A stretch of 64,000 bases of DNA from Escherichia phage KarlSchell_Bas89: the sequence record PQ850613.1. The stretch is one strand, 5' to 3'. The position numbers and the translations under genes were made by a program. A model generated the notes under the pieces. The model searched no databases. It saw nothing but the letters and a program-made list of their open reading frames with translations, and was not told where the DNA came from. Below, piece by piece: positions 34,459 to 52,140 of the stretch. Every line of letters begins with the position of its first letter. The first letter of the stretch is position 1.

Positions 34459-34467
34459 TATACATTA
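34459..34467 (-). promoter_or_regulatory. promoter-like motif TAATGTATA on the minus strand, ~58 nt upstream of the SSB gene
   Basis: Plus-strand tatacatta; 9 of 10 match to the recurrent 10-mer. Confidence 0.4.
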
Positions 34468-41107: not shown

Positions 41108-41166
41108 ATTTTATTACCTAAAGGGTTTGTATAAAAGAAAAGGCCACCCAAGCGGGTAGCCTCTGA

Positions 41167-41661
41167 TTAACTAGAGCTTAAAGCGTGTCTGATAGCTGTA
41201 TGGCTTACACCAAACATCCTACCTAAAGCTCTTGTTCCAAACTGAGCAGAACCTTTGACATAAAGGTTTTTAACTCTTTTAACATCCTCTGTATTAAGTT
41301 TCATTCTAGGGTTTATGTTCCTGTGATGGCCTACATTAAGACCTGTATCAAAAGAATGTTGAACATTCTCAGAAGCATCTGCCCACTCTAGATTCTCAAT
41401 ACGATTATCACTTTTTACACCATTCTTATGATTTATCTGAGGTTTGTTTTCAGGGTTAGGTATGAAAAAGGTTGCTATCAACCTATGAGCTTTCCATGAC
41501 CTCCCTTCAAAATAAACCCTAATATAACCTTTAGTGTCTAAGTGGCCAGCCTCTTTACCCGGATGGCTCTTATTCCACTTAAAACCTTTTGAAGATGACT
41601 CTGTGTAAAACAGACGACCAGAATCTCTATCATAAGAGAGGTAGTCGGATATAGGAATCAC
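41167..41661 (-). CDS. HNH homing endonuclease
   Basis: 'HRLIATFFIPNPENKPQINHKNGVKSDNRIENLEWADASEN'. Confidence 0.8.
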   Translation of the reverse strand: MIPISDYLSYDRDSGRLFYTESSSKGFKWNKSHPGKEAGHLDTKGYIRVYFEGRSWKAHRLIATFFIPNPENKPQINHKNGVKSDNRIENLEWADASENVQHSFDTGLNVGHHRNINPRMKLNTEDVKRVKNLYVKGSAQFGTRALGRMFGVSHTAIRHALSSS

Positions 41662-41969
41662 TGACTCAGCGCCCCCTTCCTTCCACCATTTGATTTTCCA
41701 GCTCGATCTCCACTTTTGCCGCCAGCTGAACGATTGCTGCTGACTGTCTCAACACGTAAATTGCTTGACGCATTAGAGCCTCCTGATTTAATGGCTCGTT
41801 TGTGTCCGACATCTTTACCTTTGAGTGCAGATTTTCCAACGCGTTTCTCAACGATGCGACGTGCACGGTGGCGCTGAGCATCTCCGCTCTTACTTCCAAC
41901 TCCCGTTTCACCTCTTGCGATGGCTGTACGTCTTTCTTGTGCATAATCTCTTTTAGCCTTATCAGTCAT
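41658..41969 (-). CDS. hypothetical basic protein (frame choice uncertain)
   Basis: K/R/G/S-rich; overlaps an alternative-frame ORF 41666-41944 on the same strand. Confidence 0.3.
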   Translation of the reverse strand: MTDKAKRDYAQERRTAIARGETGVGSKSGDAQRHRARRIVEKRVGKSALKGKDVGHKRAIKSGGSNASSNLRVETVSSNRSAGGKSGDRAGKSNGGRKGALSQ

Positions 41970-42027
41970 TTACAACTCCTTAATATATCAGTGTACACTA
42001 AGGAGTATACATTATGAGAGGGTAGCT

Positions 42028-42768
42028 TTAGTTGCCACCCTTCTCCATAGCTTTAACGATTGCTTTACAGAAACCAGAACGAACAATGTCATCCGAGTCG
42101 CCATCAACAATATCAGCGAACTCGTACAGATCATGCTCATCAATGAACTCGGTAGCCCAAGTAAGACCACTCTCCCGACCTTTCATATCGTGCTGGTTAG
42201 TGTCACCCATGCAGAACAGCTGGGATGTTTCACCCAAGCGGGTCATGATAGAGAATGCTTCATCTTTGGTTGTATTCTGGAACTCATCCACAATAACAAT
42301 GGCATCATTGAAAGAGCGACCACGGAGGTATTCCAGAGGCACAAACTCAATATTCCCATTACCAAGCTGGCATTCATAAAAACCTTTACCATATCGCTGA
42401 GTAATCACATCAACAATAGGCATCAGGTATGGTTCGAACTTATCACGAAGCCCACCCGGAAGTAACCCAAGAGAATTACCCATGCCAACAGAGGGTCGGC
42501 TAATGATAATCTTTTGAATCTTACCACTCTTCAGTGCATCAATGACAGTAGAGGTGATGACGAATGTCTTACCACAGCCCGCAGGAGCGTCTGTGAACAC
42601 CACTTGTTTAGTCTTGATAGCATTGAGTAGCTCAGATTGAAACTGATTCTGAGGGACCACTGGCTTCGCTAAAACAACCTCTTCATACTCACGCTTACCT
42701 TTCTTGGTGACTAAGGCTTCACGACGTAAATCTTTACGAGATTCTCTACGGGACTGTCTACGGCTCAT
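42028..42768 (-). CDS. phoH: PhoH-like ATPase
   Basis: Walker A 'DAPAGCGKT' and Walker B 'IVIVDEFQN'. Confidence 0.8.
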   Translation of the reverse strand: MSRRQSRRESRKDLRREALVTKKGKREYEEVVLAKPVVPQNQFQSELLNAIKTKQVVFTDAPAGCGKTFVITSTVIDALKSGKIQKIIISRPSVGMGNSLGLLPGGLRDKFEPYLMPIVDVITQRYGKGFYECQLGNGNIEFVPLEYLRGRSFNDAIVIVDEFQNTTKDEAFSIMTRLGETSQLFCMGDTNQHDMKGRESGLTWATEFIDEHDLYEFADIVDGDSDDIVRSGFCKAIVKAMEKGGN

Positions 42769-43344: not shown

Positions 43345-43562
43345 TTCACAACCTTAAACTTAAATGTTGTTGGGTGGTAGTAGTGTAACCTGTTTATTGT
43401 GTGCTTAGTCTCATGATACAGAACACAAGAGTGGCACATTGAATGGTGCAAACAGGTTACTGGATTACGTTTGAAATTGGCAATAAGCTTCCGCTTGTTA
43501 CAGAAGCTACATGTTTTGTGTAAGTCCATTAACTCTCCAGAGTTTTCCTTAGAGCTGACCAA
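43341..43562 (-). CDS. hypothetical Cys/His-rich protein
   Basis: 73-aa ORF with 'CSFC...CLHHSMCHSC'. Confidence 0.3.
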   Translation of the reverse strand: MVSSKENSGELMDLHKTCSFCNKRKLIANFKRNPVTCLHHSMCHSCVLYHETKHTINRLHYYHPTTFKFKVVK

Positions 43563-44185
43563 GAAATTGGGTAGAGTTTAGCCATCTCTTCATCTAATGA
43601 CTGAGCAAACAGTCGAACTTCATACTGAGCATGGGATGATAGTCGTTGACGACACAATTCAAACCAGCCATACAAGCTACCAGTCCAGACCCACTCAGTA
43701 ATCATTCCCTGAGGAAGAACAAAGCGAGCTTGCTCTGGTGCAATAAATTCAATTAGCTTATCATACGCTGCCAGTGAAGCTTCGTATGCATTATTGATCA
43801 GCATTAATGCTTCGGCTCGTTCTCCGTTGACAAGCTGTGTCCCTGAACCTGCATGGAGGTCCGAAGGTCTCGCAAAAATCTCTTTAGGGATGAAGACTTC
43901 AACTGCTCCATCTTTATACCGCCGGGACATTTCGTTCCACGAGAACCCAATTTGGTGTTTTCCAAGCTGTCTCGCAATTGCGATAGGTGCTTTGCATCGG
44001 AAACTGACTTGTGGGTGTCGGAATGGCGTAACATGCTTCTCTCTTGCGAGAAAGTTGATGAGACGTTCATCGCGATCATTTAAATCACCTTCGCGGGTTA
44101 CGCCAAAGGAAACTCGAGCTGCGTTTACTACGCTACGATCACTTCCCATAGCTTCGATTAATGTTGCTTGTAATTGTTCATTCAT
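43529..44185 (-). CDS. thyX: ThyX-family (flavin-dependent thymidylate synthase-like) protein, divergent
   Basis: Region 'HVTPFRHPQVSF...RQLGKHQIGFSWNEMSRRY' aligns by eye to the ThyX RHR-x7-S block, but reads KHQ where RHR is expected. Confidence 0.5.
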   Translation of the reverse strand: MNEQLQATLIEAMGSDRSVVNAARVSFGVTREGDLNDRDERLINFLAREKHVTPFRHPQVSFRCKAPIAIARQLGKHQIGFSWNEMSRRYKDGAVEVFIPKEIFARPSDLHAGSGTQLVNGERAEALMLINNAYEASLAAYDKLIEFIAPEQARFVLPQGMITEWVWTGSLYGWFELCRQRLSSHAQYEVRLFAQSLDEEMAKLYPISWSALRKTLES

Positions 44186-51511: not shown

Positions 51512-51721
51512 TTACTTATAAAAACTTCGAATCATGTCCCAGATTTCTTCCTGCTGGACCCTAAAGAAAGCTAAACGTGTCGATGTACGTTCAATAAATT
51601 CTTCACTATGCTTTTCTCTATCTAGCATACTGACAAGCTTTTCATATTTATTGATCTTCCATCGCATTTTTAAATAGTCTGATTCTAGTGTCCTTAACCT
51701 CTGACACTCAATCAAATCCAT
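51512..51721 (-). CDS. hypothetical protein
   Basis: 69-aa ORF abutting the AIG2-like gene. Confidence 0.3.
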   Translation of the reverse strand: MDLIECQRLRTLESDYLKMRWKINKYEKLVSMLDREKHSEEFIERTSTRLAFFRVQQEEIWDMIRSFYK

Positions 51722-52140
51722 CAGTTATCCTCTGACAGATAAAGAGACCAGTCACCAGATTCAACCAGTTCATCTTGCTCTTCATCAATGTGATAAATCC
51801 AAGCAGTGACAGTTTCACCACTATCCAGAACCACTTCGATAGGTGTACGCTTATAGAAAGTGTGTGGGTTGTCATTACCACGATGCCCTTCCAGCATGTC
51901 ATAAGCACCCTCAACACCGTCCATGTCAGTTTTAAACACTTCAACACGAACAGGTTTACCGTTACTGCTGTGTTCCAGAGAAACACTTGGGAAGTATGAA
52001 CCACCGTAGCGGTACAGGTTGTAGTTTTCTTTAGTGAAACCTTCACCAATCGATTCAGCACCTGCACGAGCATTCACTCGGAAGTTAGCCTGACCAGTAC
52101 GAAGAGAACCATAAGTTGCTACATAAATTACTTCTGACAT
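51721..52140 (-). CDS. gamma-glutamyl cyclotransferase-like (AIG2/GGCT fold) protein
   Basis: N-terminal 'YVATYGSLRTGQANF' matches the GGCT/AIG2 'YGSL' motif; ~140 aa. Confidence 0.6.
   Translation of the reverse strand: MSEVIYVATYGSLRTGQANFRVNARAGAESIGEGFTKENYNLYRYGGSYFPSVSLEHSSNGKPVRVEVFKTDMDGVEGAYDMLEGHRGNDNPHTFYKRTPIEVVLDSGETVTAWIYHIDEEQDELVESGDWSLYLSEDN

Follow-up and report, generated by a model that had tools for sequence, protein, structure and literature searches.

Gene organisation at the locus

The DNA derives from a phiEco32-like coliphage of the Gordonclarkvirinae, in which the region around the locus is 97% identical to that of EP335 and KBNP1711 and 87% identical to that of 4E8. 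Along the minus strand, PhoH is followed by a gene of 103 codons, an HNH_3 homing endonuclease, a terminator-like hairpin, two small genes and DNA polymerase. The near-complete overlap of two minus-strand ORFs described in the first-pass annotation is present in the ORF listing, where a frame of 103 residues (ATG start, 41658..41969) coincides with one of 92 residues (ATG start, 41666..41944). The shorter ORF starts 25 nt inside the longer, which places it in the +1 frame, and the two stop codons lie 8 nt apart. The features below are numbered by position in the window, the whole 64,000-nucleotide stretch of DNA that was analysed.

42028..42768, minus strand: PhoH-like ATPase gene, the upstream neighbour (PF02562, E = 3.6e-56)
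42006..42014, minus strand: TAATGTATA, the phiEco32 sigma-gp36 middle/late promoter motif, just upstream of the 103-residue gene
41976..41981, minus strand: Shine-Dalgarno sequence AAGGAG, 6 nt upstream of the ATG of the 103-residue gene, read from the sequence
41658..41969, minus strand: gene for a small basic protein of 103 residues, probably HNH-like, phrog_4590 (PHROG match, homologues, dN/dS, codon usage)
41666..41944, minus strand: probable shadow ORF, the 92-residue +1 frame (without family match, fast-changing, null-like in composition)
41848..41891, minus strand: block of 44 invariant nt within the overlap, spanning codons 27-40 and encoding KSGDAQRHRARRIV
41666..41784, minus strand: internal AGGAGG (41779-41784) with a +1 ATG (41771-41773) and a 35-codon sub-ORF, read from the sequence
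41167..41661, minus strand: HNH_3 homing endonuclease gene, 164 residues (PF13392, E = 4.7e-11)
41139..41164, minus strand: terminator-like hairpin, an 11-bp stem followed by a T-run

The TAATGTATA motif of phiEco32 sigma-gp36 middle/late promoters is located 6-8 nt upstream of transcription starts (PMC4281155). Five copies are found within the window, against 0.45 expected, and the promoter region at this locus (41994-42015) forms a 22-nt run that is invariant in 8 divergent genomes; the 4E8 record has a promoter annotated at the same place. At the unit's opposite end, 19 nt of the terminator-like hairpin are invariant in 8 genomes, and the 4E8 and SU7 records each mark a terminator at this position. 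The 103-residue gene would be transcribed from its own phage-sigma (gp36-type) promoter and translated from a strong AAGGAG-ATG start, in a transcription unit that would run through the gene and the inserted homing endonuclease gene to the terminator.

The homing endonuclease has been inserted in the 3' end of the 103-residue gene, its GTG start overlapping the TGA of the latter. It is absent from EP335, KBNP1711, IME267, SU7 and Bas92, and present in 4E8, E20-1, EcoN5 and YF01. In an alignment, relatives without it end the 103-residue gene in GG RKGALSSS and a stop codon; in the source phage and 4E8 the HNH_3 gene sits within these RKGALSSS-stop codons. The insertion brings a synonymously recoded tail, RKGALSQ and stop (AGG AAG GGG GCG CTG AGT CAG TGA), and the homing endonuclease ORF itself ends in the original ALSSS-stop codons of the 103-residue gene. 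The stop codon of the +1 frame in the source phage is part of this recoded tail.

The 103-residue frame is a conserved phage gene

The product of the 103-residue frame had been described as basic and rich in K, R, G and S, with which its composition (G 15.5%, R 13.6%, S 12.6%, A 11.7%, K 11.7%) and pI of 11.5 agree; the 92-residue product is rich in E, A, L and V, with a pI of 6.8. Along its whole length the longer protein aligns with phrog_4590 (E = 5.8e-40), and it has 273 homologues of about 100 residues in a large protein database, distributed over at least six phage groups. By tblastn it matched 260 phage records at 48-98% identity, from phages of Escherichia, Pseudomonas (LUZ24-like), Vibrio (ICP2), Aeromonas, Proteus, Salmonella and Cronobacter, with 48-67% identity between phage families. 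It is the only CDS annotated at the locus in all 12 Gordonclarkvirinae records inspected, and the 111-nt core of the gene matches 98 of 98 related phage records, the same number as the wider region.

Measured against 17 relatives, the frame has a dN/dS of 0.08-0.20, and its nucleotide differences fall mostly at third codon positions (for example 12, 5 and 38 at the three positions). Its codon-usage log-likelihood ratio, +0.49 per codon, compares with a mean of +0.44 for the true frames of the window, and its Shine-Dalgarno sequence is AAGGAG or CAGGAG in 18 of 18 relatives. The 103-residue frame is therefore a real and widely conserved small phage gene. At least six phage groups have it as a core component of their DNA-replication/nucleotide-metabolism module. 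In the source phage, as in the more than 20 loci inspected, it stands between PhoH and DNA polymerase A, the polymerase gene always following a few genes downstream and PhoH, NrdD/NrdG or ThyX being close by.

Why the +1 frame is long

A +1 stop codon can arise only where a main-frame codon has T as its second letter (xTA followed by A or G, or xTG followed by A), so a gene with few such codons has few +1 stops. The proportion of codons with T at position 2 is 0.13 in the 103-residue gene and 0.26 in window genes; for Val and Ile the gene uses GTY and ATY exclusively. Low T at this position, together with Val and Ile codons that end in T or C, accounts for the long +1 frame and for the three antisense frames, while the G-rich second positions of the Gly, Arg and Ser codons become +1 first positions and so give a protein-like translation rich in E, A, L and V. 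Residues E/A/L/V/Q/R/K make up 66% of the +1 translation, against 67% in the synonymous-shuffle null. The 92-residue product had also been called amphipathic, a description that does not hold: its helical hydrophobic moment is not above either the synonymous-codon or the order-shuffle null (P = 0.26-0.32).

With the 103-residue protein held fixed and codons drawn according to phage usage, the longest +1 open run expected under synonymous shuffling is about 50 codons, compared with about 20 for +2, and a +1 run of at least 99 codons has a probability of 0.036. Bias of this null by codon-boundary context could be discounted, as off-frame stops are slightly enriched genome-wide (924 versus 874) and context-aware codon sampling still gives P = 0.027. 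Among the 138 gene-frames of the window it comes 7th, and nine of them have P ≤ 0.05 where 6.9 are expected; seen in a single sequence, an open +1 frame is thus no more than chance allows in a window so large. Around the gene centre, the stop-free intervals across every clade member span 64-102 codons in +1, 5-19 in +2, and 59-108, 31-60 and 34-122 in the antisense frames a0, a2 and a1, respectively, so that +2 is the only one of the five alternative frames that is not poor in stops. We conclude that the 92-residue frame is almost certainly a by-product of the unusual composition of the 103-residue gene, and not a second gene.

A nucleotide-invariant block within the overlap

Synonymous variation is unevenly distributed along the 103-residue gene. 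Codons 14-25 and 87-103 are near saturation, codons 41-58 vary little, and the 44-nt block at codons 27-40 is identical in 26 distinct clade sequences. This block is the longest invariant run in the approximately 4.3 kb common to 8 divergent genomes; in PhoH, which served as the control gene, the longest run is 3 codons. Since the same peptide, KSGDAQRHRARRIV, is encoded by varied codons in distant lineages, the nucleotide constraint is specific to the clade. When viral and metagenome contigs were scanned with degenerate patterns that let the block peptide be coded differently, only clade members and tf-like phages were found, and the clade members among them all carry the invariant nucleotide block.

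One explanation is that the block, perhaps extending to codon 58, is a DNA or RNA site that does not act through an encoded protein; it might bind a protein, belong to an origin or serve as a recombination hotspot, and the 92-residue ORF would still be a shadow. The block has double the length of the invariant runs that the same method picks out at the promoter and the terminator, and as a clade-specific element of the replication module containing a palindrome, CGTGCACG (read from the sequence), it has some of the attributes of such a site. It does not, however, form a stable RNA: the predicted fold is worse than those of shuffled sequences (z = +1.29) and there is no Rfam match. Nor does it appear to be a repeat or to originate from the host, as the window holds no second copy and no match was found in E. 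coli. The position of the block, on the peptide that the protein conserves most strongly, also fits codon-level selection or homogenisation by recombination, and has a parallel in the ThyX-like gene, where a comparable island of about 99 nt with 3 variable sites (43847-43945) falls exactly on the catalytic SxNExSxRY motif. We regard a non-protein site as unlikely, though it deserves to be kept in mind.

That the islands lie on the most conserved peptide in both genes suggests a general cause, and not a hidden gene in each. Within the overlap, synonymous change is suppressed only in islands that coincide with the best-conserved motif of the 103-residue protein, and these observations suggest that the invariant islands arise from codon-level selection at critical residues or from recombination-driven homogenisation. 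There is a second conserved feature, the internal GGAGG separated by 5 nt from the +1 ATG that follows it. It comes from SGGSN, an invariant motif in the 103-residue protein; the underlying sequence, GGA GGY TCT AAT GCG TCA, is kept in 18 of 18 clade sequences, and outgroups are without the ATG or without GGAGG.

Evolution of the +1 frame

The first-pass annotation had raised the possibility that the pair is an overprinted gene. In that case the +1 frame would be translated as a young small protein specific to the Gordonclarkvirinae, either at its full 92 residues from the ATG at 41944 or as 35 residues from the internal GGAGG-ATG at 41773, with its constrained core in the segment RAEMLSATVHVASL encoded by the 44-nt block. 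The location of this block, inside the overlap and confined to the clade, is what dual coding predicts; the +1 ATG at 41944 falls within a small island of synonymous conservation (codons 8-13), and the GGAGG 5 nt before the internal ATG is conserved. As noted above, however, the similar island on the catalytic motif of ThyX points to a more general cause. The start signals of the full-length frame are also poor, its ATG lying 25 nt inside a strongly initiated ORF and being preceded, three nt upstream, by AGAGA or GAGAG only.

Outside the block, the +1 product evolves at the neutral rate or faster. Its identity is 61-67% where that of the 103-residue frame is 85-91%, and the apparent dN/dS of 1.5-2.5 reflects substitutions concentrated on the +1 second codon position; because third positions of the 103-residue gene are +1 second positions, every synonymous change at a third position alters a +1 residue. 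Residues 5-17 and the C-terminal third are unconserved, and across codons 41-58, where nucleotide variation is low, the +1 product changes 8 of about 20 residues between the two subclades and the main frame 4. An embedded protein under ordinary constraint would cut synonymous change in its host five- to ten-fold, to about 0.1-0.2x. In the 103-residue gene synonymous change is 0.78x (range 0.57-1.05) that of eight neighbouring genes, matched by codon family, and 0.80x at codons other than those for Val, Ile and Leu. The proposed overprinting is thus unsupported, with the 92-residue frame evolving at about 0.8x the neutral rate and having no independent relatives.

No homologue of the 92-residue product could be identified by Pfam or PHROG searches, and tblastn matches to the frame were limited to the 98 records whose DNA matches as well. 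Its relatives among 5.8 billion protein clusters amount to 3 clusters, from contigs of 0.6-9.6 kb. Comparison of the +1 products of Gordonclarkvirinae and LUZ24-like phages gave 13-16 shared residues of about 95, which is not above synonymous shuffles (P = 0.3-0.9), and their character differs, being hydrophilic in Gordonclarkvirinae and hydrophobic in LUZ24. The hydrophilicity of the clade product does exceed the null, and its coding score (-0.03) is the highest among +1 frames in the window, the next reaching -0.30 at most; both fit a translated frame. Codon usage and third-position behaviour, whose analysis in each frame the first-pass annotation had proposed, nevertheless separate the two frames clearly: the 103-residue frame is typical of coding sequence and the third positions of the 92-residue frame run opposite to those of genes (G 0.43 and T 0.08, compared with G 0.18 and T 0.41 in real genes).

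In favour of a functional +1 product is the openness of the frame within the clade. The frame is open in 26 of 26 distinct Gordonclarkvirinae sequences, with its ATG kept in all clade members, and synonymous-codon simulation on the clade tree (18 sequences), calibrated to the observed synonymous divergence, gave a probability of 0.012-0.05 that all 18 would be open given an open ancestor. Beyond the clade, +1 stops occur at 0.73x the expected number across 24 representatives of family lineages, and 4 of 10 additional lineages are open where 0.7 would be expected; of about 20 other family lineages, 11 have the frame interrupted. Against this, three antisense frames are equally poor in stops, the rank of the frame within the window is unremarkable, and specific avoidance of +1 stops does not explain the codon choice. 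Across the family, Val codons ending in A or G make up 0.23 of Val codons in safe contexts and 0.34 in contexts that risk a stop, compared with 0.46-0.47 in flanking genes, so the bias is the same or stronger where no stop is at risk, indicating a gene-specific codon preference. Ile and Leu codons trend in the direction predicted by stop avoidance, but on small counts. A preference peculiar to the gene is also apparent for Gly, for which GGA supplies 9 of 16 codons compared with 19% genome-wide, and it follows that nulls built on flanking-gene codon usage overstate the surprise of the openness. A conserved overlapping element common to the whole family was likewise rejected, with site-specific codon identity across 20 distant lineages at 0.434 versus 0.407 after permutation, an excess present in open and broken lineages alike.

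If dual coding were true, selection would keep the +1 frame open, which would account for the tree-aware P of 0.01-0.05. We nevertheless consider a clade-specific overprinted product improbable, and assign only a slim chance to any functional +1 product. Still less credible, to the point of being negligible, is that the 92-residue frame is the real gene and the 103-residue frame its shadow, or that programmed frameshifting links the two: although the LUZ24 RefSeq record annotates gp26 in the +1 frame, it is the 103-residue frame that is 48-67% identical across phage families in which +1 is broken or unrelated, and with frame ends 8 nt apart a fusion would add nothing.

The literature searched yielded no ribosome-profiling or whole-cell proteomic data for phiEco32-like phages; the SU10 report describes mass-spectrometry proteomics alongside virion imaging (PMC4281155). 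From the sequence, tryptic peptides diagnostic of the +1 product are AEMLSATVHVASLR and QAIYVLR. The earlier suggestion that one ORF of the pair is probably a shadow stands, and that ORF is the 92-residue frame: promoter, Shine-Dalgarno sequence, protein family, purifying selection and annotation all go with the 103-residue frame. Very probably, then, the 103-residue frame is the sole gene here, encoding a small, basic, HNH-like protein, and the 92-residue ORF is its compositional shadow.

The 103-residue protein belongs to a probable HNH-like family

An alignment of 40 diverse members of the family contains 18 invariant positions. Over 121 aligned members, His56, Asn70 and Asn79 are each invariant (121 of 121) and Leu71 is present in 119, and the spacing of the invariant residues is that of the HNH motif (xH...GG...NL...N). 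His56 falls at the end of a predicted strand (52-56), where HNH nucleases carry their catalytic His on strand beta-1; going by motif spacing, Asn70-Leu71 would be the structural "NL" motif and Asn79 the third metal-site residue. The protein is without Cys. An N-terminal segment, RGETGxGSKSGDAxRHRARR, is even more conserved than the HNH-type motif.

The residue preceding the catalytic His is Gly55 in the source phage; in the family it is D in 96 members, G in 14, H in 7 and E in 4 (n = 121). All Gordonclarkvirinae copies have Gly here and so lack the "DH" motif, and this replacement of Asp makes nuclease activity in the Gordonclarkvirinae uncertain.

In profile searches the 103-residue protein had no Pfam match at E ≤ 1, and a PHROG search gave a weak HNH match (phrog_7785, E = 0.046). 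Weak, sub-threshold matches to PF01844 were obtained with 32 of 40 family members, the best at 5e-4, and NCBIfam gave weak matches to IscB (HNH domain) only, in 13 of 40. Searching 1.8 billion representatives with a family profile recovered 351 relatives, mostly of 80-110 residues, and two distant ones pass Pfam gathering scores, P0210 for PF01844 (24.1 versus 21.4) and P0185 for HNH_3 (25.8 versus 24.8). In a sequence and profile search of the PDB, the best hit of the 103-residue protein was an Rhs HNH toxin, at E = 1.4 only.

The role of the protein is most likely DNA binding with nicking or cutting, or that of an accessory to an enzyme that does so; by inference, it would act in this way in replication or nucleotide metabolism. 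A free-standing homing endonuclease is ruled out by the presence of the gene in 98 of 98 related records, and a terminase-associated HNH protein of the HK97 gp74 type by a locus near DNA polymerase A, and not near terminase or portal genes. The site-specific nickase of LUZ24/tf-like phages, acting here on the same motif, is not supported for the source phage: the nick motif TACTRTGMC occurs twice within the window, against 1.9 expected. The nickase is not named in PMC3517423 or PMC11780129.

Implications and comparison with known systems

As originally framed, the overlap has little significance, the 92-residue frame being a classic shadow ORF within a hypothetical gene that annotations already include, its length explained by few codons with T at position 2 and a preference for GTY and ATY codons. 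It does bear on annotation. The gp26 of the LUZ24 RefSeq record ("contains transmembrane domain") is the same shadow frame and needs correcting, as do the occasional metagenomic calls of the frame as a protein. The family of the 103-residue protein, comprising tightly conserved HNH-like proteins of about 100 residues at the core of the replication module, merits characterisation. A further outcome is that at least two genes of the Gordonclarkvirinae carry short nucleotide-invariant islands on their most conserved peptide motifs, for which codon-level selection, recombination-driven homogenisation and hidden elements are candidate causes.

The top fold matches of the 103-residue protein are small stand-alone phage HNH nicking endonucleases (HK97 gp74, the GVE2 HNH protein 5h0o and the Gme HNH protein 4h9d), with which it has in common a length of about 100 residues, a single (here predicted) beta-beta-alpha-metal motif, a basic character and a phage origin. 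Free-standing HNH homing endonucleases, such as the adjacent 164-residue HNH_3 protein and I-HmuI, share with it the HNH motif and a place in the phage replication module. These enzymes are, however, sporadic and have DNA-binding modules, whereas the 103-residue protein is too small for extra modules and is under purifying selection; unlike them, its gene is itself the target of a homing-endonuclease insertion.

With genuine overprinted phage genes (lambda Rz/Rz1, phiX174) the ORF pair shares its geometry, one frame being nested almost entirely in the other on the same strand. In those systems the embedded frame is under purifying selection of its own and synonymous change in the host gene is depressed throughout the overlap, while here it still runs at 0.78x overall and the product of the embedded frame is not conserved. 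The resemblance is closer to shadow ORFs in compositionally biased genes, in which a same-strand frame owes its length to the composition of the real frame, changes at its second codon positions, has no homologues and is occasionally mis-called by gene finders (here the 3 clusters and LUZ24 gp26). From typical shadow ORFs the 92-residue frame differs in being open across its clade somewhat above the null, and in having a nucleotide-invariant block inside it.

Conservation and coding character of the 103-aa gene

The sites considered within the 103-aa gene (41658-41969, minus strand), which encodes a small basic HNH-like protein, are:
41771-41784 (-), a perfect internal AGGAGG and, 5 nt downstream of it, a +1-frame ATG opening a 35-codon sub-ORF
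41803-41805 (-), codon 55, Gly in every Gordonclarkvirinae copy
41848-41891 (-), an invariant 44-nt stretch, with few changes onward to about 41796

Among 26 distinct Gordonclarkvirinae sequences no nucleotide varies across 41848-41891, and no other invariant run is as long in an eight-genome alignment of about 4.3 kb. Searches of the stretch for an RNA fold, an Rfam family, a repeat or a host match found none. At the putative internal start signal, all 18 of the clade sequences compared keep nearly every third position of GGA GGY TCT AAT GCG TCA, whereas codons on either side differ among them.

In 96 of the 121 members of its family, position 55 of the protein holds the HNH 'DH' motif's Asp, and others carry H or E; the Gordonclarkvirinae version of this putative nuclease, with Gly, may be altered or inactive. 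The gene is nevertheless under strong purifying selection in these phages despite the Gly. Its codon choice departs from that of the phage as a whole: GGA supplies 9 of its 16 Gly codons, compared with 19% genome-wide, and its third positions are A-rich (0.36 vs 0.24) and T-poor (0.32 vs 0.41). Val codons ending in A or G are depleted throughout the family.

Flanking elements

Two features border the gene, and the promoter motif of the phiEco32 sigma factor gp36, TAATGTATA, recurs in the window:
41167-41661 (-), HNH_3 homing endonuclease gene, sitting inside the final codons of the 103-aa gene (41658-41684)
41975-41987 and 41994-42006, arms of a 13-nt inverted repeat, 85% complementary, with a 6-nt spacer
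7717, 24565, 34459 (-), 34531 (+) and 42006, exact copies of TAATGTATA

The tail of the 103-aa gene, RKGALSQ*, is synonymously recoded and was brought by the HNH_3 insertion; the original ALSSS* codons now form the end of the endonuclease ORF. HNH_3 genes also adjoin the family elsewhere, downstream of the homologue at locus L043 and upstream at L035, and in Cronobacter phage GAP52 an annotated HNH endonuclease lies upstream of the homologue.

At the 5' side, one arm of the inverted repeat is the Shine-Dalgarno region of the 103-aa gene (TTAAGGAGT) and the other, ACTCCTTAG, directly follows the promoter motif; paired, they could give a 5'-leader hairpin sequestering the ribosome-binding site. 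The five exact copies of TAATGTATA compare with 0.45 expected, and those at 34459 and 34531, about 70 nt apart and facing each other, suggest a divergent promoter pair.

Other long alternative frames

Two further genes of the window, and one annotation in phage LUZ24, involve a long +1 frame:
43847-43945 (-), second conserved island, ~99 nt, within the ThyX-like gene 43529-44185
51721-52140 (-), gamma-glutamyl cyclotransferase-like gene (phrog_2520, E=1.8e-43)
L025 2532-2801 (15668-15937 of NC_010325.1), RefSeq gp26 of Pseudomonas phage LUZ24, GTG start, 'hypothetical protein, contains transmembrane domain'

The ThyX-like island has three variable sites over about 99 nt in eight genomes, covers the ThyX catalytic motif (FSWNEMSRRY...) and falls within a +1 open run of 91 codons (43807-44079; P=0.019, window-wide scan). 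The +1 frame of the cyclotransferase-like gene is open over 117 of 139 codons (P=0.03), a same-strand run whose nominal significance equals that of the 92-aa frame inside the 103-aa gene.

In LUZ24, the gp26 annotation corresponds to the +1 shadow frame of the homologue of the 103-aa gene, and the conserved HNH-like frame (L025 2501-2776+) carries no annotation in NC_010325.1. Records of other LUZ24-like phages annotate either the HNH frame or the two together, and LUZ24 gp26 is likely a mis-annotation.
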